Assembly: GCA_963662865.1 (NCBI GenBank)
Contig: OY759969.1
Span: 2,287,742-2,351,741 of the forward strand
DNA: 64,000 bases
Direction of reading: 5' to 3'
Source of the DNA: Gammaproteobacteria bacterium
GTDB taxonomy: Bacteria > Pseudomonadota > Gammaproteobacteria > JAJDYQ01
The position numbers and the translations under genes are program-made. Shown piece by piece: positions 6,957 through 34,144 of this stretch (position 1 is the first letter of the stretch; the number at the start of each line of letters is the position of its first letter). Under the pieces are notes generated by a model. That model did no database searches and was not told the origin of the DNA. It saw only the letters and a list, made by a program, of their open reading frames with translations.

Positions 6957-8042
6957 TTAGGATTTTTCATTTAACAGAAACTCCATACCTGCCAACTCAT
7001 GTCCATTTACGATAATGCTAATCGAATGATTACCTGCATAATATTCTCTTGTTGAAATTTTCTTGAACGAAAAAGATTTCTTAACAGTTTTGTTATTACT
7101 ATCAACTTCTGACTCAGATATTTTGAATATTTTCCTTGATAAATTACCGCTTTTCTTAACAAAATCTATCGCATATTCAATTCTAAGCCTTCCGAGCTTT
7201 TGTTTTTGCGATTCAATTGTAAAAGAGAAATTCAGATTACCTTCCATTTCAACGGATTTTTGGGTTGTGAAATTTTTAATTTCAAGATGCTCTGGCTTTG
7301 AGAAGCCAAACAGATTCATTATCTCCGGCTGCCCTTGCTTTAGTAGCGTGCGACAAGCGTGCTTAATAATCCAGTCTGTTCGTTGATTGCTACCCAGCCA
7401 GCTCTTGGCTATCTCTATTACAATCTGTGGGTTATCTTTTGATATGTCATTCAGATTATTGGCAACGCTCCTTCTTACATATTCACTATCATCATTTTTC
7501 AGTTTTTCCAATATCGGCAGGATTTGGGATGGATCTCGCTTAAATTCAGGAAGTGCCATTGCCCAGGGTAAGCGAGGCCGACATCCTTCAGATGAAAGCC
7601 GACGTACATGGTGATTTTCTGATTCAGCCCATAATTCCATTTGTGCCATCATTTTCTTATTATGTTTTTTAATGAATGGTCGAACCGCAGACTCAGAACT
7701 TGCATACGAGGTGAAGTGCTCCAAAGCATGAATGGACTCTTCATACTGATCTAAGCCATACAGCTCCACAAAACCCGGAAAAAACATATACTGAAATCCA
7801 CTGAATTTTGATGACAATTTCATTAGTATTTGAATAGCATCAGAATAATCCATTGGTAAATATTGGTGCAATGATTCTGAAATATGTTTCATCCGCTCCT
7901 TTAGTTCTTTTTCTTTCCATTCATTATCAAATATATGAGAAGAAAACCCATCTTCATCAAAATTCTCATGCAGGCTTGACACTTGTTCGCACAAGGATTT
8001 TACAAGTTCAACGTTGTATAAGTTTTTTAATGGTTCCGGCAT
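6957..8042 (-). CDS. DNA alkylation repair protein (AlkD/AlkC-like HEAT-repeat glycosylase family) (cassette 4, reverse orientation)
   Basis: 361 aa. YVRRSVANNLNDISKDNPQIVIEIAKSWL matches the DNA_alkylation repair-enzyme family signature. Confidence 0.55.
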   Translation of the reverse strand: MPEPLKNLYNVELVKSLCEQVSSLHENFDEDGFSSHIFDNEWKEKELKERMKHISESLHQYLPMDYSDAIQILMKLSSKFSGFQYMFFPGFVELYGLDQYEESIHALEHFTSYASSESAVRPFIKKHNKKMMAQMELWAESENHHVRRLSSEGCRPRLPWAMALPEFKRDPSQILPILEKLKNDDSEYVRRSVANNLNDISKDNPQIVIEIAKSWLGSNQRTDWIIKHACRTLLKQGQPEIMNLFGFSKPEHLEIKNFTTQKSVEMEGNLNFSFTIESQKQKLGRLRIEYAIDFVKKSGNLSRKIFKISESEVDSNNKTVKKSFSFKKISTREYYAGNHSISIIVNGHELAGMEFLLNEKS

Positions 8043-8997: not shown

Positions 8998-9810
8998 ATG
9001 CAGGCACAAGAAATTAATCTGGAAGAATATTTTATCCAGGACGAGCCGTATTATGAGCCGGTTGGTAATGAAATCGTTGTTTTTGAGGCTGCCTACAACA
9101 ATGGTTTGCCGATTTTATTAAAAGGACCGACCGGCTGCGGTAAAACCCGTTTCATGGAACACATGGCCTGGAAGCTGGAACGTCCGCTGATTACCGTTTC
9201 CTGCCATGATGACCTGACAGCCTCCGATCTTGTCGGGCGATTTCTGGTAAAGGATGGTGAGACGGTTTGGGTGGATGGGCCACTGGCGCGTGCGGTGCGT
9301 GCCGGGGCGGTCTGTTATCTGGATGAGGTGGTGGAGGCCCGCAAAGACACGACCGTGGTCATTCATCCGCTTGCCGATGATCGCCGGGTGCTGCCGATGG
9401 AGAAGATCGGCCACCTGCTGGAAGCGGGGCCGGAGTTTTGTCTGGCCATGTCATATAATCCCGGTTATCAGAGTGTCCTGAAGGACTTGAAGCAGTCAAC
9501 GCGCCAGCGATTTATCGCTCTCGAATTTGACTATCCCGATGCGAATCTTGAAACCCGCATCGTCGAGAAAGAGGCGGATCTGGATGCGCAAATGGCGGGC
9601 TTGCTGGTCAGATTTGCCGGTATGACGCGCAATCTGAAAGGTAACGGGCTGGATGAAGGCGCCAGCACGCGCCTGTTGGTACATGCGGGCAAGCTGATGG
9701 CGGCCGGCGTGGACCCGGTATCAGCCTGTCAGAGCGCGATAGCCCAGGCGCTTACGGATGATCCGGAAATGCTGGCGGCAGTCAACGAGCTGTCCGCATC
9801 GTTATTCTGA
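8998..9810 (+). CDS. cbbQ: CbbQ/NorQ/NirQ-family AAA+ ATPase (RuBisCO activase subunit-like)
   Basis: [55 protein letters not shown] and [21 protein letters not shown]. Length 270 aa. Near-colinear match to CbbQ. Confidence 0.85.
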
Positions 9811-22324: not shown

Positions 22325-22389
22325 CTCGAATGATTGTAGGTTTTAAACTGGTAAGCATAATAACCAAACTGAACAACCCGGGAAATATC

Positions 22390-23715
22390 ATGCCATCCTT
22401 AAGATTCGTATTAGTCGCTGCTTTACTCTTTGCTTCGAGCGTCCTGCACGCCCGCAACAACCTGCTGGATATCTATCGGGTTGCCCAGCAATCCGACCCC
22501 GTGTGGTTGGCGCAGGTCGCGGCAAACATGGCGGCTCAGGAGGCCATCGTACAGAGTTCTGCCAACTTCCGCCCGAATATCCGTTTTTCGGCCGACACAA
22601 CCAGCAATTTCAATAACTCTCAATCATTCAATCCGTCGATTGCTGATCGTCGTGAAAAATATAATTCCAATAGCTGGACATTGAGCCTCACTCAACCGAT
22701 TTTCCGAATGTCAAATTACGCGCAGCATCGTCTGGCGAAGGCAAGCGTACAGCGGGCAAATGCGGAATTGACTGCATCCGCGCAGGACCTCATGCTGCGC
22801 GTTGCCCGGGCCTACTTCGACATCCTGACCGCAGAGTCCGAGTTGACAGCGGCGCAAGCGGAAAAAAAGGCGATTGAGCGCCAACTGGACCAGGCCCAGA
22901 GGCGTTTTGAGGTCGGGATGGTTGCGATTACAGACGTGCATGAAGCTCAGGCCAGTTTTGACCTGGCAGTGGCCAATGAACTGGCGGCACAGAATCAACT
23001 GTTACTGGCAAAAGAGTCACTCAGCGAAATAACCGGAGACACCTACGACTCGCTTAAGCCGTTAAAGGACCGGATCAGGCTGGCCTCGCCGGAGCCCGAT
23101 AATATCGATGAATGGGTAAAACGCGCCCTGGAAAACAACCATACACTTGAGGCCGACAAAGCCGCCGTAGAAGTTGCCCGGCAGAATATCGAAGCACAGA
23201 AAGCAGGCCATTATCCGACCCTGGATCTGGTCGCTACGGGCCAGAACAATACCAGCCACGGCGGCAATTTCGGTAGCGATGCAGACAGAGAAATGCTCGG
23301 CCTGCAACTTACATTGCCTGTCTATTCAGGCGGCTTAACCGCATCCAGAGTGCGGCAGGCCATAGCCGAACTACAACAGGCACAAGAGGGATTGACCCGA
23401 ACCCGGCGCGCTACTGAAAGACAGGCCCGCGACGCCTATCTGAGGGTTATTAGTGCCATCAGTAGAATACAGGCCTTGCGTCAGGTCATGGTCTCTTCCC
23501 AAAGCGCCCTGGATGCGACGCAAGCCGGTTTTGAAGTTGGCACCCGTACTATTGTCGATATACTCAATGCGCAACGCACGCGATACAGCTCCGTTTCTGA
23601 CTTTCAGCAGGCGCGCCACAACTATATCATCAACAGCCTGGAACTAAAGCAGGCATCCGGGTCCTTATCTGAAGAAGATATCAGCCGTGTGGATCAAATG
23701 CTAAAGGCTAATTAA
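22390..23715 (+). CDS. tolC: TolC-family outer-membrane efflux protein
   Basis: Signal peptide MPSLRFVLVAALLFASSVLHA. Two repeats of the TolC architecture. Start moved to the ATG at 22390, which has a GGAAAT RBS. Confidence 0.85.
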   Translation: MPSLRFVLVAALLFASSVLHARNNLLDIYRVAQQSDPVWLAQVAANMAAQEAIVQSSANFRPNIRFSADTTSNFNNSQSFNPSIADRREKYNSNSWTLSLTQPIFRMSNYAQHRLAKASVQRANAELTASAQDLMLRVARAYFDILTAESELTAAQAEKKAIERQLDQAQRRFEVGMVAITDVHEAQASFDLAVANELAAQNQLLLAKESLSEITGDTYDSLKPLKDRIRLASPEPDNIDEWVKRALENNHTLEADKAAVEVARQNIEAQKAGHYPTLDLVATGQNNTSHGGNFGSDADREMLGLQLTLPVYSGGLTASRVRQAIAELQQAQEGLTRTRRATERQARDAYLRVISAISRIQALRQVMVSSQSALDATQAGFEVGTRTIVDILNAQRTRYSSVSDFQQARHNYIINSLELKQASGSLSEEDISRVDQMLKAN

Positions 23716-23839
23716 GCGAAACTGTAAATTTTCATGTTCCAATGAGATTGTGGCAGGCCCGTAATTTCCGCAAGACCGGCGTCAGGATCAAACCAGAATC
23801 TGCATAAGCCATTTTGTCAGATGGACCTGACTGACGCAG

Positions 23840-23866
23840 AATTTTGAATGCCATCCATCGGGCATT
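23840..23866 (+). terminator. rho-independent terminator after tolC
   Basis: ATGCC-ATCCATCG-GGCAT followed by TTTATT. Confidence 0.5.
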
Positions 23867-26623
23867 TTATTCCGTAAGGATGTCTTTTATGTCCGATGCT
23901 TTTTTTGAAACCGCAAACTTCCATTTGCCGAATCTGCCGTTTTCGTTGACGGCTTTAATCCATTCTTTCATGTATGCGTGTTTTGTATCGTCTTTTTCTT
24001 TTTGCTGGCCCTTGGTTTCCAGCACAAGCAATTCTCCCGATTTCATCCGCACAAGAAAATCGGGGCGGTATTTTTTCACAATGCCATTGTAGATATATAA
24101 AACCTCAAAACCGAGATGGTCATTTTTAACCCACGCCTCAACCGCTTTATTTCTATCAAGCTCGAAAGATTCTGATGCTTCCCAGGTGCTGTCATAAACA
24201 CAGTAATTGATATGGCTTCTTTTCGCGGCTTTGCAGGGTTTGCCGGTCCGCCATGGGCGCATGTCGCCGGTTGATCGAATCGGATGGTTGTCATCAAGCA
24301 CAAGAGCGGTTTTCTCTGTATTGTTAAATTCTATTGCCTGCCAGAAATGACGAATGATCTTTGACATATTGAGCGTTATCACAAGATGTCTTCTCTTTAC
24401 ATCCTGATTAAAGAGAGCGGGCATTATCTGTATGCGGTCTGAATCCAGAAACTGTTCCGCAAGACGCACAAGTTCTGCCATCAATAGCGGCGCAGATGCC
24501 GGCCATTCAGGTTTCATTTCCTGCCAGACGATTTGTGCCGCCTTGAATACAAGGGTTTGTTTGCGGAATTTTTTCGCCAGCTTTTCAATATCAATGTCTT
24601 CAATTTGGGAAACGTCAGGCTTGTTATTTACCGTGGGCGCGATCTCCGCTATTTCAACGGTTGTTGAAGTATCCAGTTCCAGTTTTTTTATTTTTTTCCA
24701 ATCAATGGCAAGTTCGGGCCTGTAAGTTCTGTCTATGCGGATGACATTGGGCCACGAAATGGCAAACTGTCTCTTTTCATCCACAGGCCGAATGATCGTT
24801 TTCGGCGGCGGAGGCGGTGGAGGTTTATCCATGTCTTCGTGTGGCAGAAAGCTGAACGGCACACCGAAAACATTGACATATTCGGCATCAAATAATCCCG
24901 TGTCTTCATTGATTTCATAAGAAGCACGGCGTAGCCCACGCCCGATAATCTGCTCACATAACAATTGACTTGTGAATGCCCGCAGCCCCATAATCTGCGT
25001 CACTGTCCTTGCATCCCAGCCTTCGGACAACATTCCAACGGATATAACATTCTGTACTTGATCACCAGGTTTCCCTTCCTGCCCGACCGTGTTCACTTTT
25101 TCACGCAGAATTTCAGCCTGTTCTTTTTTCGTTGCTTTGCGACTACCTTCCCTGCCTGCTTTTGTTGTGCCCGGTTCCGGCTCTTTTTCCTCGGCTTTTT
25201 TCAGCACTTCCGAGTCGATATGCAAAATCCCATTGGGAGCGCATAACTCATGAATGCTAATGTCCTTATTGTCAAAGGCATACTTGATTCTGGCTGCTGT
25301 TTCCGTGCGGTTTGCGACCGTAATCATCACCGGCGGCGTTTTCGCCCCTTGTCCCTCCCATATTTCTTTTGTTTTTAACCAATCGTAACCGAGCAGGAGA
25401 TAGGCGTTTCTTACAAGGTCGGGAGGCGGTTCATGCGGTTCAGCCTTTCTGTTCAGGTCATCTTTGACTTCCTCTTCGTTGTAGATGTGATACAGGCGGG
25501 ATTTATGGGTACTGGCATTTGGCAGAGCGTCATCACGCACAACAACACGGGGTGTTTTGACAAGCCCTGATTCTATGGCGTCACTGAGTCCGAAATCGCT
25601 GACAATCCAGGGGAACAACATCTCTTCCGATGTCTTCTTGCCGCTTGGTGCAAATGGCGTAGCAGAAAAATCAAAGCAATTCAAAATCCCCCTGGTTTTG
25701 TGTATGCGGTCAAGGCCACCAACCCATTTTGTGGCCTCGTCTATTTCCTCTTTCCTGACACCTGCTATTTTTGACTGTGCCGGAACACGCCAGGCATGAT
25801 GGGCCTCATCGTTAATCACAATCAGATTTCTGGCATTGGCCATATCACCGAGAACTTCGCGGGTATATGCCTCATCGCTTTTCGCGCCGCGTTTATCCAC
25901 CCCTTTCTTCTTTTTGATTTTTTCCTCACTTTCCCAGTTCAGGGTATGCCAGTTTCTTATGAGAACCTTTGCCTGTCTCAGCTTTTCGAGCAGGGACAAC
26001 GGCACAATACCGAACTCATCGTAATAGTTCTGCCTGTTTGATGGCATCAAAACAGAAAGACGCTCCCTGACGGTCAGATTAGGCGCGACAATAAAAACAT
26101 TTTGTGAAAACCGCCTGTCTTGAGGGTAAGTGGCGCGATTGATGGCCTGCCACGCAATCAGCATGGCCATGACAACGGTCTTCCCTGTACCAGTGGCGAG
26201 CTTGGAGCACAAACGGCTCAGTTCTCTGTCCTTTGCAATTTCAATTCCGGTCTTTTCCGAGTCGGGAGTTTCAATAAACCATATCAGCGTTTCAATCGCT
26301 TCCATCTGGCAGAAGAAAAACGGGAAATCTCTTTGCTCGTTGTCCCTCCAGTGTTCAAGCAGGGCTTTGGTAATACCCGTAATTCCGGGGCAGCCCGCTT
26401 TGCACCAGGAGTCAACACGTTTACGGATTTGGTTGACGGTCGGCAGGGGAACAAAAATGCCCTTGTCCTGATGCGGTTTTGCCTTCGGGTCGGCAACCAT
26501 ATAACCCGCTTCACGACGACCCTCCACACGCTCAAGCGGGGCGTCTTCCTCGACGAACTTCCAGTGCTTGGAAGGTGCAGAGCAGGGGGAGTTGATTATG
26601 AGTGATGAGGATTTTTCAGGCAT
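23867..26623 (-). CDS. res: Type III restriction endonuclease subunit (Res): SF2 helicase plus C-terminal PD-(D/E)xK nuclease
   Basis: Helicase motif I LATGTGKTVVMA and motif II VINDEAHHAW. C-terminal endonuclease motif YRPDFLVRMKSGELLVLETKG. 918 aa. Confidence 0.85.
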   Translation of the reverse strand: MPEKSSSLIINSPCSAPSKHWKFVEEDAPLERVEGRREAGYMVADPKAKPHQDKGIFVPLPTVNQIRKRVDSWCKAGCPGITGITKALLEHWRDNEQRDFPFFFCQMEAIETLIWFIETPDSEKTGIEIAKDRELSRLCSKLATGTGKTVVMAMLIAWQAINRATYPQDRRFSQNVFIVAPNLTVRERLSVLMPSNRQNYYDEFGIVPLSLLEKLRQAKVLIRNWHTLNWESEEKIKKKKGVDKRGAKSDEAYTREVLGDMANARNLIVINDEAHHAWRVPAQSKIAGVRKEEIDEATKWVGGLDRIHKTRGILNCFDFSATPFAPSGKKTSEEMLFPWIVSDFGLSDAIESGLVKTPRVVVRDDALPNASTHKSRLYHIYNEEEVKDDLNRKAEPHEPPPDLVRNAYLLLGYDWLKTKEIWEGQGAKTPPVMITVANRTETAARIKYAFDNKDISIHELCAPNGILHIDSEVLKKAEEKEPEPGTTKAGREGSRKATKKEQAEILREKVNTVGQEGKPGDQVQNVISVGMLSEGWDARTVTQIMGLRAFTSQLLCEQIIGRGLRRASYEINEDTGLFDAEYVNVFGVPFSFLPHEDMDKPPPPPPPKTIIRPVDEKRQFAISWPNVIRIDRTYRPELAIDWKKIKKLELDTSTTVEIAEIAPTVNNKPDVSQIEDIDIEKLAKKFRKQTLVFKAAQIVWQEMKPEWPASAPLLMAELVRLAEQFLDSDRIQIMPALFNQDVKRRHLVITLNMSKIIRHFWQAIEFNNTEKTALVLDDNHPIRSTGDMRPWRTGKPCKAAKRSHINYCVYDSTWEASESFELDRNKAVEAWVKNDHLGFEVLYIYNGIVKKYRPDFLVRMKSGELLVLETKGQQKEKDDTKHAYMKEWIKAVNENGRFGKWKFAVSKKASDIKDILTE

Positions 26624-26649
26624 TGAGTTAGCGTGTATTTTGAATGCTT

Positions 26650-27444
26650 CTAATGAAGATACGACTCTATGTTTTGCTCAATGGGCTTCCTTGAATCTAT
26701 TGAACTGACTTGTGAGCCTGCAATATTTGCATCTATCAATCTACTTAAATGTTTGGATGGAATTTCTTCCTGGTTTTCAAAAATAAGCAGCGTAGATTTT
26801 TGTATCTCGTGAATAAAAAAATGTTGCAAGGTTATGGTAACTAACTTTGCTTTGTCCTGATTCGGAATTCCAAACAGAAAAAGAGGGATTCCTTCTTCTT
26901 TTTTCAGATAATAATCAATGATGTAATTCTCAGAGTTGTCTAAATCAGGCACCTGATAATCCTGCTCTAATTTAATATCAGGCTTATCGCTGATGATCTG
27001 TTCCAATAGCTCCTTTAAGTCTCTGTAAAAAGTGGATGAAAATCGATCTCTGTTCAGATAAGACAAGTCATAAACCTGATTCAGTGCCTGGCTTAAGCGA
27101 AAGATGCCTTGAGAGATTTGTTCAACTGAAACATCCACATAAAAATTGCCATTGTCCTCGTTGATTTGATTTTCAGCGAGTATCTGGTTCATCAATTTCC
27201 CTTTGTTACCTTTGAAGTACCCATCAACATTTGGAGTGTAGTAGCTCAATCTCATCATGGTATCTGCCCCATCGCTAATACGTACTTTGCCAACGTCAGT
27301 TTCCTGTAAATAGATAGAGTAATGGTCGCCATCCGGATATGAGAATGGGTTTGAGATCATTTTCTTTCCATTCTGACGCTCTATCAGTTTGATGTCGGTA
27401 CATAATTGACGGCAGAGTTCTTTCTGTAATTGATCTTTATTCAT
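26650..27444 (-). CDS. hypothetical protein (tentatively DUF1828/DUF1829-like), embedded between mod and res
   Basis: 264 aa, AT-rich. Overlaps the upstream ORF by 4 nt, so likely translationally coupled. The DUF assignment is from memory of FSYPDGDHYSIYL-type N-terminal domains and is unverified. Confidence 0.45.
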   Translation of the reverse strand: MNKDQLQKELCRQLCTDIKLIERQNGKKMISNPFSYPDGDHYSIYLQETDVGKVRISDGADTMMRLSYYTPNVDGYFKGNKGKLMNQILAENQINEDNGNFYVDVSVEQISQGIFRLSQALNQVYDLSYLNRDRFSSTFYRDLKELLEQIISDKPDIKLEQDYQVPDLDNSENYIIDYYLKKEEGIPLFLFGIPNQDKAKLVTITLQHFFIHEIQKSTLLIFENQEEIPSKHLSRLIDANIAGSQVSSIDSRKPIEQNIESYLH

Positions 27445-27920
27445 GCTAAAAAACCCTCAAAGAGATTCTGTTGTGGAGAATTCGAATGTATGCTGTAGTC
27501 TTCACATAAGCATTTGAATGCGCCATCCAGGTTTTCATACCTTTTGGTTGTTTGCGTGTCTTCATGCTCTGGGCTTCTATCGCCTCTATTGATACTTTCA
27601 GGAGTGGCATGATGGATGTGGCATTCATGGCTCGCCACATTGTTTTCATGGTTAGAACCGTTATAGCGGGAAAGCATGATGTTCTTACCGTCTTTTTCAA
27701 CAAGACGAATGCCACAAGAGAAATTCTCCATATTTGATTCATTTTGTCGGGCAAAAACCTTTATAGATAAATCAGACAAGTGATCAGGCTTATCGACACC
27801 GTCAAACTGAACATCAAAATTCCATTGCTGACTTCCTCTTTGGCTGGATTTTTGCTCCTCTTCTATGGTTTTGGGAATTTCTCTAATTGATTTCAATATT
27901 TCCTCTGAAATTTCCATCAC
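27441..27920 (-). CDS. hypothetical His/Cys-rich protein (HECHIHH motif), embedded between mod and res
   Basis: 159 aa. SRYNGSNHENNVASHECHIHHATPE is a possible metal site. The ORF starts immediately after the remnant ORF stop. Confidence 0.45.
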   Translation of the reverse strand: MMEISEEILKSIREIPKTIEEEQKSSQRGSQQWNFDVQFDGVDKPDHLSDLSIKVFARQNESNMENFSCGIRLVEKDGKNIMLSRYNGSNHENNVASHECHIHHATPESINRGDRSPEHEDTQTTKRYENLDGAFKCLCEDYSIHSNSPQQNLFEGFLA

Positions 27921-28192
27921 TCCACCTCTACAATCTCCATCACCTTCAAACTCTCAATCCTTCGATCATCCATGGTTCGAATGGTTTCAATTGCCTCACT
28001 CCGGCGGAAAAAGAATGGGAAATTCCTTTGTTCATCGTCCTGATGCAGTTTTGCCTTCGGGTCGGCAACCATATAACCCGCTTCACGACAGCCTTTCACA
28101 CGCTCAAACGAGGCGTCTTCCTCGATGAACTTCCAGTGTTTGGAAGGTGCGGCGTAGAGGGAGTTGATTATGAGAGATTTTAGGGCTAACAT
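27917..28192 (-). pseudogene. chimeric remnant: res 5' end (with an internal deletion) fused to a mod-3'-end-like sequence
   Basis: The 91-aa ORF MLALKSLIINSLYAAPSKHWKFIEEDASFERVKGCREAGYMVADPKAKLHQD|DEQRNFPFFFRRSEAIET|IRTMDDRRIESLKVMEIVEVE aligns to Res aa 8-52, then Res aa 93-112. Its tail resembles the Mod C-terminus VKIVDDRGIESLKVINVIQRK. The DNA at 28000..28192 is roughly 85-90% identical to 26318..26623. Confidence 0.8.
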
Positions 28193-28758
28193 TTTAAATC
28201 GCTGAAGGAAATTTTTTCCAAAGAGTGGATAACTTTGAAGTTCTTACCTCTGTACCAGCACTCGCCTATCGGCTGAGGTATTATTCGTTGCTTATTCAGT
28301 CTTTCTCCTTTTTCCCCTTCTTTCTCTGCAAGAACAACAAAGTGTTTTTTAATTTCAAGTTTAATATCAAAATGAGCCCACATCATTGAGACCAGATATT
28401 CCCAAACAGGAATAGTAAAAAGTATTTGTTTGCATGCTTCTCTAGGAATGCCATTTTTATCGGGAGACAAAGTTTCTTTTATCTCTAGAAAATAAATATC
28501 CATACCATTTTCATTCTGCGGCACTATAACCAGAAAATCACAAGATTTCTTGTAATCTTTTTGAATCTTTATTATCCTCGAGTGGGCTTTTCCTCCTGCC
28601 GGAATAGAAAGTTTAAGCCCATTATCAGGTGATTCAATTATTGTAAATCTAACTCGATTTCCTTCTTTCAACTCAAAACAGTTATTTTTTATAATTTTAC
28701 ATTGAATTTTTAGAAGTCTTTGTATTGCCTCCATGGGGTCAGTCATCTTTTGAATCAT
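28186..28758 (-). CDS. small PD-(D/E)xK-type nuclease-like protein
   Basis: 190 aa. SCDFLVIVPQNENGMDIYFLEIKET has the D...E-x-K spacing and resembles the Res endonuclease motif RPDFLV...LVLETKG. AT-rich. Overlaps the upstream ATPase gene end. Confidence 0.5.
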   Translation of the reverse strand: MIQKMTDPMEAIQRLLKIQCKIIKNNCFELKEGNRVRFTIIESPDNGLKLSIPAGGKAHSRIIKIQKDYKKSCDFLVIVPQNENGMDIYFLEIKETLSPDKNGIPREACKQILFTIPVWEYLVSMMWAHFDIKLEIKKHFVVLAEKEGEKGERLNKQRIIPQPIGECWYRGKNFKVIHSLEKISFSDLKC

Positions 28759-30121
28759 CCCTTTTCATATAGGTAAGCTCCGCAGATATCTGATTAATGC
28801 CATCAATCGCATTATCAAAAACCGTCATACCATCAATGCCCTGTTTATCTATAGTGCATTGTCTTAAGCCGCCTTTCTCACAAAGATAAGCTCTAACAGA
28901 TTTTGGGTCAAGATGATCAATCTCTGTATATTCTCTTTTATGCTTCACAAGAAACTCTTTTTTTCTGTCAAAATCACCGTGCAGCATAATCAGATTATTA
29001 ATTTCTTTGATTATGTAATCGCTGTAGGTTGTTATAAGAACTTTAATTCCTGCATTAACACAAAATACCAAGAGTCGTGCCATTAGAATTTGATTGGTCG
29101 GGCTAAGATGGCTTTCGGGCTCATCAATGATAAGGAGTTGATTTGGCGCAGCTTTGTGTTTTAAATAAAAATATAAATCAGAAAGCCCTCTTGCCGAGGA
29201 TGAAGCCAGATGTAATGGTATATTAAATTTATCCTTCCTTTTTCTTGAAATAAATCTGATTTCATCTTTTATCATCTTATAGTAGCCATCCATCATATAT
29301 CTTATTGGAACGACTGTATCATCTATCAATTCACTTTTTTGTCTTTGTATGTTTGACAAATCCCTGGTGAAGTCTATATTATCTTTTATGGGCTGTGCAT
29401 AACGTGCACTTTGTTTTTCAATAAAAATAAACGGATCAGAATGCCTATCGTCTGACAATTTTTGCAGCTCCTCAACCAACCTGTTCTTGGTAAAATCCAG
29501 TTCTTTATAAAACAATGAAATACCAAATCTTTCTGCGGATAAAATATGGAGATTGAGACCAATATTAAGTGCTGTTCTTGCAAGTAATCTGCATACACCA
29601 CTCTCAATGACCGATGACGGCATACTTTCTAAACCATCAGCTTCAAATATCAAATTTCTATCATCCTGAAAAAAGGATTTCATCGTTGCCTTATCTTTTG
29701 AAGGGAACTTGATTGCATCTGATGTCGTTTGATGGTCTTTTCCCCAGTCAAGTTGGAAATGTGCCCCTTCAAATTCGCTTCTTGGAGAGCTGAATACCTG
29801 ATGAATAATTTCTTGAGAAAAGAATTGATATGCTCTGTTGATCAACTCATTACGTATTTTTTCGTATTCTTCTAATTCAATACGTGCTGTGCCTGTCTCT
29901 TCTATCTGTCGTGTGACCTCTTCTATTTTTTCCTCAAACCATTCAGGGAAATCAATTATATCATAAAGGGGAAATCCATTTTTACAAAAATCTAAAAACC
30001 CATAAAGGGTATAAACAAGGTAAGTTTTACCGGTATTATTCTGCCCTGCAATGATCGTTAAATCTCCCAATTCCAGTTCGGCATCCTTGATTGGCCCGAT
30101 ATTTTTGAAGGTTGCTTTCAT
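28739..30121 (-). CDS. ABC-type AAA ATPase (AAA_15/AAA_21-like, OLD/Septu/PARIS-type) without a fused nuclease domain
   Basis: Walker A IIAGQNNTGKTYL near the N-terminus. A distal Walker B/D-loop LLIIDEPESHLSP, with a long insert between. Start placed at the ATG at 30121 (MKATFKNIGP) with an AGAGGAAAT RBS, 5 nt after the mod stop. Confidence 0.7.
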   Translation of the reverse strand: MKATFKNIGPIKDAELELGDLTIIAGQNNTGKTYLVYTLYGFLDFCKNGFPLYDIIDFPEWFEEKIEEVTRQIEETGTARIELEEYEKIRNELINRAYQFFSQEIIHQVFSSPRSEFEGAHFQLDWGKDHQTTSDAIKFPSKDKATMKSFFQDDRNLIFEADGLESMPSSVIESGVCRLLARTALNIGLNLHILSAERFGISLFYKELDFTKNRLVEELQKLSDDRHSDPFIFIEKQSARYAQPIKDNIDFTRDLSNIQRQKSELIDDTVVPIRYMMDGYYKMIKDEIRFISRKRKDKFNIPLHLASSSARGLSDLYFYLKHKAAPNQLLIIDEPESHLSPTNQILMARLLVFCVNAGIKVLITTYSDYIIKEINNLIMLHGDFDRKKEFLVKHKREYTEIDHLDPKSVRAYLCEKGGLRQCTIDKQGIDGMTVFDNAIDGINQISAELTYMKRDDSKDD

Positions 30122-30125
30122 GCTT

Positions 30126-32741
30126 TCATTTCCTCTGAATAACATTAATGACTTTGAGGCTCTCAATCCCACGGTCATCCACTATTTTAACCGCGATTCG
30201 GCTGTTTTTGCCCAATTCAAACGGCAGTGACACCGTGCCTTGGTAGGATTCTATCAGGCCTTCGTCTATTTCGGCCCTCAGGTTTCTGGCGAGTTTTGTC
30301 CAGCCGCCTTTGTCGTCTGCCATTGGGAAGAACACCTGACTCGGATACAGGCTTCTGCCGTCGTAGTCGGTGTCCAGCATCCAGACGGCGATTTTGTTTT
30401 CATCACCGGATTCCAGTTTGCCGGTTCGGGTATTGAAATAGTCAAAGCCGTTCATGTGCACCTGCCATTGCCCCATCAGTTCGCCTTTTCTGATTTGTTC
30501 TACCGCGATGTCCGGCTGGCCTATCAGCCAGAAACTTTCATTGCCTGACCGTTTCTTTTTCAGATCATCGGTTTGCAGGTCGGCGTTCATTTGCGCTTTC
30601 AGTGGTGTCACCCCGGGCCAGTTGGTTTCGTCTATATCCCTGGCGGCTTCGGGATCAAACTGAAAGGCGGCGAACACAACCATTTCAGGCTTTGGCATCA
30701 GGGTTGCCGCTTCCTGCAAGGCGTTTTCTACCTGTCGCGCTTCCAGCGGGGCGTGTTCCGGGCCGAAGGAGATCACCGCACGGCGGGGTTTATAGGCGGT
30801 TGCGGTTTCTCTTACTGCATCTGTACCGGAATCATCCGGTCTGGTTTCGGCGTCTGCATGCAGCCAGCGGCACGGCAGGGGGTCAATACGGGAAAATGAA
30901 ATGCGCTGTCCGCCCTTGCCGCGTATGCCGGTTTTCAGCAGTTCATCACGCCATTCGCTCTGGCGCAGGGTTTCGCCGGTGCGGGCAATGGTTGCATCTG
31001 CCGGAACAGGCGGCGCCTGTATATTATCAATCGGCTGCACGGTCGGAGACGGCACGGCTTCCGCGGTAAAGGGGCCGGTAACACGTGCCCGTTTACTGTC
31101 TTTTTCCGGTTGATCAAACAGGGTTTCCCTTGTAGATGGCTTTACGCCAATCAAAACGCTTGGGGATACCTTCGGAACATATTTATATTCAAACCCGCCT
31201 CCCACGCCTTCATCGGGCCAGGCCAGTTTGTAATAGTCAAATGTGGCGGTCATCAGTCGTTGTTTGGCGAGGGTCAATGCCACACGCGAAGTGTCGCAGG
31301 TGATCCAGCGGCGCCCCCATTGCTCGGCCATAGTGGCGGTTGTGCCGGAACCGCAGGTCGGGTCAAACACCAGATCGCCCGGGTCGGTCGTCATCAGGAG
31401 GCAGCGTTGTATGGCCTTAACCGAAGTCTCCACAACATATCTCTTTTCACTCGGATACATCTGCGCCGGCCAGATATTATTGATACGCCGTCCCGGCACT
31501 TCATCTTCGTACTTTTTCCACCTGAGAGAGTCCTGTTTTTCAAGTGCTTCCAGCCGCCCCATTTCTGCCAGTTTGTCCAAGCCCTGTTTTGAAACAGACC
31601 AGTGTCTGTTTTTTGAACATCGGAAAATTCTGCCCTTCCATTGATAGGGTTCGGACCTTCCGGTGGTAGAAACGCCCTGCGAGTCCAGTCCTGTGCGCTG
31701 ATAGATGCGCGCCCCCTCGGGCAGGAATTTATCGGGGTTGAAACGTTCTTCATCGGTTAATTTCCGGCAGGTGCCATCAGACAGTTCCACCGCCACATAA
31801 GAGCTAAAGTAATCCACGATTTCCGGTCGTGTCAGTGGTTCGTACAACTGCCGATACTTCGCTTGGTTTTTGTCTTTTGCATACCAGAGCAGGTAGTCCG
31901 AGACCTGCGGCAGGTGTTGTGTGGAACTGCCACTGGTAGTCGCAAATGAAATGGTGGCGATACGATTCTCCGCGCCAAAAATATCGTCCATCACGGTCCC
32001 GACTCGATGCACATTTTCATCGCCAATCTGCACAAAGCACGAACCGCTTTCGGTCAGCAATTCACTTGCCAGCAAAAACCGGTCACGCAGATAGGTCAGA
32101 TACGAATGAATACCCAGTTCCCAGGTGTCGCGGAACGCCTTGATCATTTCCGGTTCAGAGGTTAAGTCCTCATCTTTGCCATCCCGTACCTCGCGTTTAC
32201 CCACAAACGGCTGAAAATTGGAGCCGTATCTAATGCCATATGGCGGGTCCATATAGACACACTGCACCTTGCCTGCCATATTCTCTTTTTGCAGCAGCGA
32301 GTTCATCACCAGCAGCGAATCACCGGCAATCAGGCGGTTGCTCCAGTTGTTGGCGTGTTGGTAAAACTCGATCGCTTGGCGCAGCGGGATGCTCTGCTCT
32401 TCTTCAAAAAGCGACGCCTGTCTGCCGTTACCGCCGTTGCTGTTTCTGACCGCTTCGATGATGGTGCGCGGGTCAATGCGCTCGTGGACATGCAACGATT
32501 GGGTCGGCACGGCAAAAGATGTGTGCTCGGCCTTGCCGGCCCATTGCAGTTGCGGGTCCAGGTGCGGGTCGTGTTGCCAGGTCTTTTTTTCTCCTTTGTC
32601 CGGGTCGGTTTTGGGCGTTACCAGCCCGGCGGGCGGATTGTTTGCCCTTTCCTCGCCTCCATGAGAGTAGGATTCGATTTTGCGTTTTTTCGGCGGCAAG
32701 TTTGTACACACCTTTTGATGATTCCTCCCATGGTACCGCAT
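30126..32741 (-). CDS. mod: Type III R-M N6-adenine DNA methyltransferase (Mod, beta-class) with a long C-terminal extension
   Basis: LIAGDSLLVMNSLL...GKVQCVYMDPPYGIRYGSNF (motif IV) precedes motif I LVFDPTCGSGTTATMAEQWGRRWITCD. 871 aa versus about 600-650 for typical Mod proteins. Confidence 0.8.
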   Translation of the reverse strand: MRYHGRNHQKVCTNLPPKKRKIESYSHGGEERANNPPAGLVTPKTDPDKGEKKTWQHDPHLDPQLQWAGKAEHTSFAVPTQSLHVHERIDPRTIIEAVRNSNGGNGRQASLFEEEQSIPLRQAIEFYQHANNWSNRLIAGDSLLVMNSLLQKENMAGKVQCVYMDPPYGIRYGSNFQPFVGKREVRDGKDEDLTSEPEMIKAFRDTWELGIHSYLTYLRDRFLLASELLTESGSCFVQIGDENVHRVGTVMDDIFGAENRIATISFATTSGSSTQHLPQVSDYLLWYAKDKNQAKYRQLYEPLTRPEIVDYFSSYVAVELSDGTCRKLTDEERFNPDKFLPEGARIYQRTGLDSQGVSTTGRSEPYQWKGRIFRCSKNRHWSVSKQGLDKLAEMGRLEALEKQDSLRWKKYEDEVPGRRINNIWPAQMYPSEKRYVVETSVKAIQRCLLMTTDPGDLVFDPTCGSGTTATMAEQWGRRWITCDTSRVALTLAKQRLMTATFDYYKLAWPDEGVGGGFEYKYVPKVSPSVLIGVKPSTRETLFDQPEKDSKRARVTGPFTAEAVPSPTVQPIDNIQAPPVPADATIARTGETLRQSEWRDELLKTGIRGKGGQRISFSRIDPLPCRWLHADAETRPDDSGTDAVRETATAYKPRRAVISFGPEHAPLEARQVENALQEAATLMPKPEMVVFAAFQFDPEAARDIDETNWPGVTPLKAQMNADLQTDDLKKKRSGNESFWLIGQPDIAVEQIRKGELMGQWQVHMNGFDYFNTRTGKLESGDENKIAVWMLDTDYDGRSLYPSQVFFPMADDKGGWTKLARNLRAEIDEGLIESYQGTVSLPFELGKNSRIAVKIVDDRGIESLKVINVIQRK

Positions 32742-32884
32742 ACTTGACCGTTTAACACTCCCTTAATCGGCATCTTGGTGAATCGTGATTTTCCATTCAG
32801 TATCTCCCGGACCCGATTGCCAGGATTAGTCAGAGTTTCCATAATGCCATTACCGAAGTTTCCTGCATTCTCTTCAAAAATTCC

Positions 32885-34144
32885 TTAATACCTCGCAATG
32901 ATTGTGATCAATCGTTGCAATGCGCCACGATTGGATTCGACATAGGCCCTGCCGTTGATGCCCAGTTCATAGCGTAAATCGGCGTCTTTCAATAATTCCT
33001 GTACGGTCAGGGCCAGTGTCTGGCTATCGGTGACCATTCTTGCTGCGTCTGCCTGTAATAATTGCTGGCTTATATCATGAAAATTAAACAGGTGTGGCCC
33101 AAACACCACAGCGATGCCCTGGGCCGCGGCCTCAATCATGTTATGCCCTCCAATCGGCATCAGGCTGCCGCCGATGAAGGCCACGTCGCCGGCGGAATAA
33201 AACTGCGGCAGTTCTCCCAATGTATCCACCAGATAGATATCCGACACGTCATCATGGGCTGTTTCCAGTGTGCGACGGATCACTTTCCAGTGATTTTTCC
33301 GGCACAACCGTTCAACATCGTCTGCACGTTCAGGGTGGCGGGGGATCAGCACCAGCAGGGCATCATTCACTGTTTTCTTCAGTATCGCATGGGCTTTCAG
33401 CACCTGTTCTTCTTCTCCGACATGTGTACTTGCAGCAATCCATACCGAACGATCAACCCCCAGCCGGCGCCGGAGCACCTCGCCCTGTTCGCGCAGCTCG
33501 GCAGGCGGATTGATATCCATCTTTATATTGCCCGTAACGATGACCTGCTCCGGGTTTGCGCCCAGGCCCATGAATCGCAGCCGGTCACTCTCGGTCTGGG
33601 CGGCGATACAGGAAATACGGCTTATCGCCTGATACGTCAGGCCCCGAATCCGCTGGTATCCCTTTGCGGAATGTCCTGAAAGCCTTGCATTGACCAACAG
33701 CAGAGGGACGTTGCGCTGATGGCACCAGCTAATTATGTTGGGCCATATTTCGGTCTCCATAATAATCGCCCGTGCCGGGTTGATCCGATTCAGAAAGCGA
33801 CTGACGGCACCGGACAAGTCATAAGGGGCATACACGTGATGCACTCGGCCACCAAACAGAGACGTTACCCGCCGCGAACCCGTAGGGGTCATCGTTGTTA
33901 TAACGACCGGCGTTTGCGGGTCAGAACGCAGGAAATACTCAATCAATGGGGCACTGGCCTGTACCTCGCCAACGGATACGGCGTGTATCCAGGTAGAGTC
34001 CATCAACTCAGGTAGCCTGTTAAAGCCAAAGCGTTCCGGCCAGCGATACCAGTATTCCCGGTCCCGAAAGCCACGACGCAACAGTCGCCATAAAAACAAA
34101 GGCACAAGCAGATACATCAACGCGCTGTATGCAAAGCGTGCCAT
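32885..34144 (-). CDS. waaA: 3-deoxy-D-manno-octulosonic acid transferase
   Basis: WIHAVSVGEV, MTPTGS and the glycosyltransferase C-terminal ETEIWPN...IGGSL. Confidence 0.85.
   Translation of the reverse strand: MARFAYSALMYLLVPLFLWRLLRRGFRDREYWYRWPERFGFNRLPELMDSTWIHAVSVGEVQASAPLIEYFLRSDPQTPVVITTMTPTGSRRVTSLFGGRVHHVYAPYDLSGAVSRFLNRINPARAIIMETEIWPNIISWCHQRNVPLLLVNARLSGHSAKGYQRIRGLTYQAISRISCIAAQTESDRLRFMGLGANPEQVIVTGNIKMDINPPAELREQGEVLRRRLGVDRSVWIAASTHVGEEEQVLKAHAILKKTVNDALLVLIPRHPERADDVERLCRKNHWKVIRRTLETAHDDVSDIYLVDTLGELPQFYSAGDVAFIGGSLMPIGGHNMIEAAAQGIAVVFGPHLFNFHDISQQLLQADAARMVTDSQTLALTVQELLKDADLRYELGINGRAYVESNRGALQRLITIIARY

Follow-up and report, generated by a model that had tools for sequence, protein, structure and literature searches.

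Nested defence genes serve the discovery of new immune systems, and the route by which such genes come to be embedded has so far been left open. Embedded defence genes in Hma, BREX, DISARM and Type I R-M systems were described by Payne et al. 2024 (bioRxiv 10.1101/2024.01.29.577857), who excluded pseudogenes and explicitly left the origin of embedding open, and PrrC inside the Type IC EcoprrI locus is the classic case. The locus analyzed here raises the question of how a 91-codon open reading frame (ORF), which joins the start of a restriction gene to the end of a methyltransferase gene, came to lie between accessory genes in a Type III R-M operon. This operon is part of the window, by which we mean the whole stretch of 64,000 nucleotides that was analyzed from a gammaproteobacterial genome (GenBank assembly GCA_963662865.1, contig OY759969.1). 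We consider it probable that the 91-codon ORF is a recombination scar without a protein function of its own, lying inside an operon of the order mod-[A]-scar-[B]-res, where A and B are cassettes of accessory genes.

The host operon and its chimeric reading frame

The seven ORFs from mod to res all lie on the reverse strand and are closely packed, with the embedded genes co-oriented with their hosts (Table 1). The mod gene does not directly precede res in the window, as 3.5 kb with four genes and the scar lie between them. Judged by domain and profile matches, mod and res are a Type III R-M pair, with an N6/N4 DNA methyltransferase domain in Mod and an SF2 helicase (ResIII) domain in Res; support for the C-terminal endonuclease of Res is weak (RE_endonuc match of 0.0052, below the cut-off). 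The 190-aa partner of the ATPase in cassette A (p190) has a weak match to PDC-M47B alone and leaves PD-T4-4_B unmatched, and in cassette B the DUF1828 protein matches PDC-M24B while the 159-aa protein (p159) matches no PDC-M24 component. GC content is 0.34-0.40 in the cassettes versus 0.48-0.54 in mod, res, and the scar. A promoter and terminator scan of 23500-33000 returned the counts expected from shuffled sequence, with no internal signals evident.

Table 1. Features of the operon and of the chimeric ORF, in window coordinates
Feature	Position	Strand	Evidence
mod, Type III methyltransferase, 871 aa, first gene of the operon	30126..32741	-	Pfam N6_N4_Mtase (PF01555) 4.7e-29; PADLOC MTase_III 2.4e-152
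Cassette A gene 1, ABC/AAA_15-AAA_21 ATPase, 460 aa from ATG 30121	28739..30121	-	PADLOC PD-T4-4_A 2.3e-108 (full length), PDC-M47A 1e-89; Pfam AAA_15/AAA_21
Cassette A gene 2, 190-aa partner (p190)	28186..28758	-	PADLOC PDC-M47B 3.2e-8 (weak match)
Chimeric res'-'mod scar ORF, 91 aa	27917..28192	-	mosaic alignment; annotated protein P0031 in source genome
Scar piece 1, copy of res codons 7-53	28037..28178	-	ungapped vs 26465-26606, 128/142 nt = 90%; direct repeat, spacing 1572
Scar piece 2, res codons ~94-112	27981..28040	-	44/60 = 73% to resident res
Filler, 8 nt TCGAACCA, at illegitimate res'/'mod join	27973..27980	-	sequence inspection
Scar 'mod tail, last ~18 codons of B-type mod allele + TGA	27917..27972	-	colinear with L040 3845-3898, onward into p159
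Cassette B gene 1, p159 (158/159 aa), without known family	27441..27917	-	22 homologues; no Pfam/PADLOC match
Cassette B gene 2, DUF1828 protein, 264 aa	26650..27444	-	Pfam DUF1828 7.8e-18; PADLOC PDC-M24B 1.2e-14
res, Type III restriction subunit, 918 aa, intact	23867..26623	-	Pfam ResIII (PF04851) 1.7e-10; PADLOC REase_III 5.5e-10

The longest ORF of the ATPase starts at ATG 30178, which would overlap mod by 53 nt and is unlikely to be the true start. The conserved MKATFKNIG begins at ATG 30121, 4 nt past the mod stop, and is the same in the related loci L044 and L049. The operon is flanked by a TolC-type outer-membrane gene (22330-23715), on which side it is syntenic with locus L043, and by a Kdo-transferase-like gene, assigned by sequence only (32885-34144). 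Res has its closest named relative (79% aa) in a Candidatus Oxydemutatoraceae MAG (Chromatiales).

The sequence-only reading had described the ORF as a mosaic of two res 5' pieces and a mod 3' tail, and alignment confirmed this composition, with res codons 7-53 and ~94-112 ahead of the tail. The 142-nt block shared by piece 1 and the resident res is the longest direct repeat within 23800-32800, and with 128 of 142 positions matching without a gap, chance or low-complexity similarity was rejected, as that reading had already concluded by eye. Its estimate of 85-90% identity over 28000-28192 holds for this block (90%) and not for the second res block, which reaches only 73%. The deletion between the two pieces is real and in frame, but smaller than the ~140 bp previously estimated: the block offsets (1572 versus 1695) give 123 nt, or 41 codons, and GGAC is common to both edges. 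The filler TCGAACCA at the join to mod imperfectly repeats the preceding GAAACCAT, with GAAACCAT/GAACCAT forming an imperfect duplication.

The tail, p159, and the DUF1828 gene are colinear with their equivalent in L040 (78% over 1317 nt), the peptide in the mod tail reading DDRRIESLKV in the scar versus DDRGIESLKV in L040, and the scar tail is ~70-76% identical at the nucleotide level to the end of the window's own mod (30132-30181). Both ends of the ORF overlap a neighbor. At the start, the scar ATG shares bases with the stop codon of the 190-aa gene, and the scar TGA, which had been seen to meet the ATG of the 159-aa gene, overlaps that ATG (27915-27917) as TGATG, an arrangement of tail and start codon that is the same upstream of every p159 homologue examined.

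The ORF has no Pfam match and lacks every Res and Mod domain. Piece 1 and the resident res give a dN/dS of 0.48 (14 substitutions), about what would be expected of one neutral and one constrained lineage, and true Res orthologues give 0.13-0.14. Scar-specific changes fall at Res-invariant residues (P to L, P to S, L to F, R to C, and P to L, as well as FCQ to FRR). At the level of sequence, and with small counts, this relaxed constraint and loss of invariant residues show that the scar is decaying as a protein.

A different view would be that the chimera is a functional small protein, with a Res N-terminal and a Mod C-terminal part, that acts as an adaptor or decoy and either regulates assembly of the Type III enzyme or links that enzyme to the embedded systems. 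The ORF is indeed open across two in-frame joins and has stop/start overlaps with both neighbors, and the chance of a neutral scar staying open across these joins is ~1 in 9, which counts against the scar reading. Res-invariant residues have nonetheless been replaced, and the exact chimera is without a close homologue among 5.8 billion clusters or 1.84 billion representatives, so that we regard a protein function as very unlikely. For a scar, an open and overlapping ORF would probably keep translation coupled to B and res and thereby avoid polarity. A word-indexed protein search with the 91-aa ORF returned only itself and truncated Res N-termini, and exhaustive search was needed to recover the further chimeras described below.

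Single-cassette loci and exchange between relatives

According to the sequence-only reading, the inserted modules arrived by recombination between related Type III loci. Such an origin predicts parental loci with a single cassette, exchange at the junction in close relatives, and a scar tail derived from the native mod context of B, and we found all three. The arrangement mod-ATPase-p190-res is complete in L044, L045, and L046, and L043 has A-res on a contig that ends before mod; the 190-aa homologues always stand after the ATPase and before res in these four loci. The other parental arrangement, mod-p159-DUF1828-res, is present in L040, in L047, and in 15 of 50 distant metagenome loci, a position in the mod-res gap that suggests a long-standing functional tie of p159 to the Type III family. 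The scar tail, finally, is colinear with the L040 mod end and the B cassette that follows it.

In 48 of the 50 metagenome loci p159 is paired with DUF1828. These relatives were recovered only with an alignment query, and a metagenome scan with a single 158-aa sequence returned none of them. The invariant motifs of the p159 family are RQ..NFSCG, L.RYNG, H.H.A, and R..E (alignment A1). An apparently free-standing p159-DUF1828 pair occurs in L042 between shikimate dehydrogenase and FemAB-like genes. Upstream of it, 59 aa of the Mod C-terminus survive as a stub (7822-7998), and downstream lies a stub of 21 aa from the Res N-terminus (9259-9321); either the R-M genes eroded around this pair or the cassette moved with its flanks.

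L043 is the syntenic orthologue of the window operon, at ~82% nucleotide identity across cassette A, res, TolC, and the gene beyond (82.8% over 2779 nt for res). Its 190-aa gene runs directly into an intact res, with neither scar nor B, and the window has ~1430 extra bases relative to L043 (26607-28036), bounded by the 142-nt direct repeat.

Exchange between close relatives is most directly seen in L040 and L044, which come from the same study and occupy the same chromosomal site (an HTH gene upstream and dnaX and ybaB downstream). Their flanks, mod, and res are 97-98% identical, and L040 carries B where L044 carries A. Their homology breaks off directly after the conserved ...GGGATTGAGAG, at 35 nt upstream of the mod stop codon, and is restored from the res start codon onward; each cassette therefore travels with its own last ~11 mod codons. 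The last ~11 codons of the window's mod are an A-type tail, as in L044, and the scar tail is B-type, as in L040. In Microcoleus, six loci with flanks 91-96% identical have five cassette configurations, built from the separable modules DUF433+DUF5615, Uma2/PDC-S03, SoFic, and AAA_15+PIN. Together, these comparisons show that, in this R-M family, homologous recombination within the conserved coding sequence at the mod 3' and res 5' ends exchanges one cassette for another.

Across 33 relatives with both genes on the contig, a mod-res gap of 0.6-5.5 kb is present in 25, and mod and res are adjacent in 8. The gap genes are almost always co-oriented and are defence or TA modules, including HEC-01, PDC-S03, and SoFic. 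The view of the junction as a cassette-exchange site is thus sustained by the swaps between relatives, with the qualification that the exchange is not site-specific, since scar breakpoints vary. Comparison with homologous loci, which had been proposed as a means of reconstructing the insertion order, yielded the parental arrangements and did not fix the order of events.

Two further differences among these relatives concern the host genes themselves. The res of L040 has a ~150-nt deletion relative to L044 (L040 5985-5996 versus L044 9214-9376) that splits it into 242- and 647-aa ORFs, and the L040 restriction gene may be inactive. The Microcoleus mod genes contain a ~500-nt central segment without homology (L010 5403-5941 versus L009, L011, L014, L023, and L034), the rest being 91-96% identical, which probably reflects target-recognition domain swapping beside cassette turnover.

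Ancestry of the scar

At its upstream edge, where p190 ends and res starts, the scar is of the A type seen in L043 and L044, and the start of the resident res differs from it. Piece 1 and its resident partner are mutual closest relatives, since they are 90% alike and each is 82% identical to L043, and dS is 0.18 between piece 1 and the resident res and 0.66 between the window and L043. As both copies stand at 82% to L043, piece 1 is by sequence non-discriminating between donor and recipient. Piece 2 is closest to L044 (51/60, 85%), followed by L040 (48/60, 80%), the resident res (44/60, 73%), and L043 (42/60, 70%), and the resident res is L043-like throughout. These identity patterns would therefore place piece 2, the mod tail, and B in an L040/L044-like donor lineage, and cassette A, the scar start, and the res body in the recipient lineage, although for piece 2 the donor assignment is a thin one, made on 60 nt.

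These patterns lead us to propose that the left part of the scar is the right-hand flank of A (the p190/res-start overlap and res codons 1-53 and ~94-112), which would come from a mod-A-res locus, and that the right part is the left-hand flank of B (the last ~18 mod codons, with TGATG leading onto B), which would come from a mod-B-res locus, the two flanks having been joined illegitimately. A cassette would then occasionally be added instead of replacing another, in a rarer event that needs one illegitimate join. A fragment consisting of the 'mod tail, B, and res 5' sequence might first be circularized or permuted through one microhomology join, after which one crossover between it and the res 5' sequence at an A-type locus would integrate it and would duplicate 142 nt of res in doing so. 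B would again be excisable through the direct repeat, as a predicted 1572-bp circle. L043 could represent such a revertant, as recombination in the 142-nt repeat would cleanly remove B and leave A-res.

The ancestry pattern is in line with a Campbell-type single-crossover integration of a permuted unit (res 5' remainder, mod tail, B, and res 5'), or alternatively with a scar-bearing donor. We infer the circular intermediate from this pattern, and a scar-bearing donor or a deletion between tandem loci would yield the same product. In the latter case the scar would be the remnant of tandem mod-A-res and mod-B-res loci that lost everything between res codon ~112 and mod codon ~-18, keeping the first mod and the second res. 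Such a deletion gives the res'-'mod order with one illegitimate join, and repeated deletions would be expected to produce recurrent res'/'mod joins with varied breakpoints. The ancestry pattern appears to fit it less well, as a tandem deletion predicts that the res sequence of the scar shares the ancestry of A and the resident res that of B, whereas A and the resident res are closest to L043 (82-83%), and piece 2 and B to L044/L040. There is also no intact tandem pair among 101 loci, and we judge a tandem deletion to be unlikely compared with integration by a single crossover.

A linear, one-ended illegitimate insertion, with all of the res sequence in the scar coming from the recipient, is likewise disfavored, given that piece 2 is L044/L040-like and the resident res L043-like.

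Related spacers and cassette arrays in other genomes

Fragments of res 5' and mod 3' sequence between cassettes were sought at the DNA level in other loci, and an exhaustive protein search was performed with the 91-aa ORF as query. L048 carries an array of the order mod-A-spacer-(AAA+S8 peptidase)-spacer-B-spacer-(Schlafen/HATPase_c_4)-res, in which each of the three spacers joins res'(1-87) to 'mod(~100 aa) at one common breakpoint, a (C)ACCAAAAC microhomology; two of the spacers are complete ORFs of 179 and 190 aa that overlap their neighbors. L049 contains two spacers with a common breakpoint of their own (Res ~18 | Mod -25), distinct from that of L048, and in L019 a res' copy of 30 codons precedes the res-proximal cassette. 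The scar breakpoints upstream of B differ among the window, L048, and L049, indicating that A and B were stacked independently at least three times.

The mod-res gap of L048 (461-9934) holds about ten co-oriented genes, in which cassette A is followed by an AAA/nSTAND3 gene, an S8 peptidase gene, cassette B, and a Schlafen-AlbA_2/HATPase_c_4 gene. The order of A before B is common to the window, L048, and L049, even though their scars arose separately.

The exhaustive search added the independent chimeras P0042, P0048, P0057, P0035, P0079, and P0038, the last with a tail that is out of frame. P0042 lies inside the mod...res interval of L100, between a DUF4258-DUF2283 pair and an MNT-HEPN pair, and its halves are 88-89% identical to L100's own res 5' and mod 3' sequences; P0057 follows an AAA_15/DUF4276 pair in L101. 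Over all of these scars, breakpoints fall at Res codons ~18, 30, 55, 87, and 112 and leave Mod tails of 18-195 codons, and they are identical within an array and different between arrays, with microhomology at the joins. The occurrence of similar scars in unrelated genomes suggests that this is a general way in which such gene arrays are built. In Planctomycetota and most other multi-cassette relatives no scars were detectable at E<0.05, and scars are therefore either not universal or decaying. The short ORFs P0070 and P0084 result from internal deletions of res that join its N-terminal directly to its C-terminal coding sequence, a different route of decay in the same family.

The spacers also bear on whether the chimera might be a working protein. 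Other genomes contain analogous open frames of 80-243 aa, and dN/dS between two of the L048 spacers is 0.58, not 1, both of which speak for a function at the protein level. The breakpoints and the retained segments, however, differ in every lineage, no common protein is conserved, the tail of P0038 is out of frame, and protein databases show only ORFs, which makes the openness partly an ascertainment bias. On the scar reading, one illegitimate join would make a spacer, later additions would use the homology of that spacer to both flanks, and in-frame spacers would be favored.

Tentatively, we take this one step further and ask whether the spacers are working parts of an integrase-free cassette array, a possibility that we hold to be less likely than not. 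With homology to both flanks in each spacer, any mod-X-res locus might then donate its cassette by a single crossover, mediated by the host, to the left or right of a spacer, which would explain why breakpoints are shared by the three spacers of L048 and by the two of L049. Cassettes might loop out as circles via res 5', and in-frame bridge ORFs may be selected. If this is true, the spacer is translated, coupling is kept, and polarity on the distal res is prevented.

Arrays of co-oriented, tightly packed cassettes with related spacers between them also recall integrons, and the junction could be imagined as an integron-like site-specific recombination site, with the scar as an att-type sequence. 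We give this hardly any credence, as no integrase or recombinase was found in or beside any array examined, breakpoints vary (Res codons ~18-112 and Mod tails of 18-195 codons), and the microhomology at the joins is typical of illegitimate recombination. With a recombinase absent from the window locus and from the annotated related loci, and with breakpoints variable, site-specific recombination of this kind was rejected. What the arrays share with those of integrons is an order of co-oriented, promoterless cassettes with related spacers, together with gain, loss, and a predicted loop-out of circles; unlike integrons, they have no integrase and no attC, their spacers are coding fragments of res and mod, and exchange is explained by host homologous recombination with rare illegitimate joins.

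Other known systems resemble this one in part. As in the embedded systems of Payne et al., the accessory genes of the window are nested on the same strand between host components, and its cassettes match PADLOC models from that work (PDC-M47 and PDC-M24) as well as PD-T4-4; here, in contrast, the host is a Type III system, a class that their survey did not include, arrays extend to ~10 genes, and the joining scars are physically preserved. Allelic exchange of the mod target-recognition region in Haemophilus (PMC1557822) similarly swaps a variable segment through conserved flanking coding sequence in the same operon, and the Microcoleus loci also vary in the central mod segment, but the unit exchanged here is the whole accessory cassette between genes and not a domain inside mod. 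Defence hotspots with anchor genes, such as the enterobacterial immigration control region (PMC12707154), likewise combine conserved anchors with highly variable defence content, whereas the anchors here are two genes of one R-M system and the content is cotranscribed with them. In a literature search of incomplete coverage, we found no description of Type III mod-res embedding or of res'-'mod chimeras.

The scars are a molecular record of stacking that preserves which flank was paired with which cassette and where the illegitimate join occurred, and they record that ordinary recombination in the conserved ends of mod and res swaps or stacks cassettes. The model predicts an excision circle of 1572 bp, polarity upon interruption of the scar, and addition versus replacement of cassettes upon transformation. 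Short ORFs that fuse a Res N-terminus to a Mod C-terminus offer a practical marker for delimiting cassettes. The Type III family is widespread, with members in Gammaproteobacteria, Cyanobacteria, Planctomycetota, Chloroflexota, Bacteroidota, and an archaeal MAG, and new defence genes could be sought in the interval between its mod and res.
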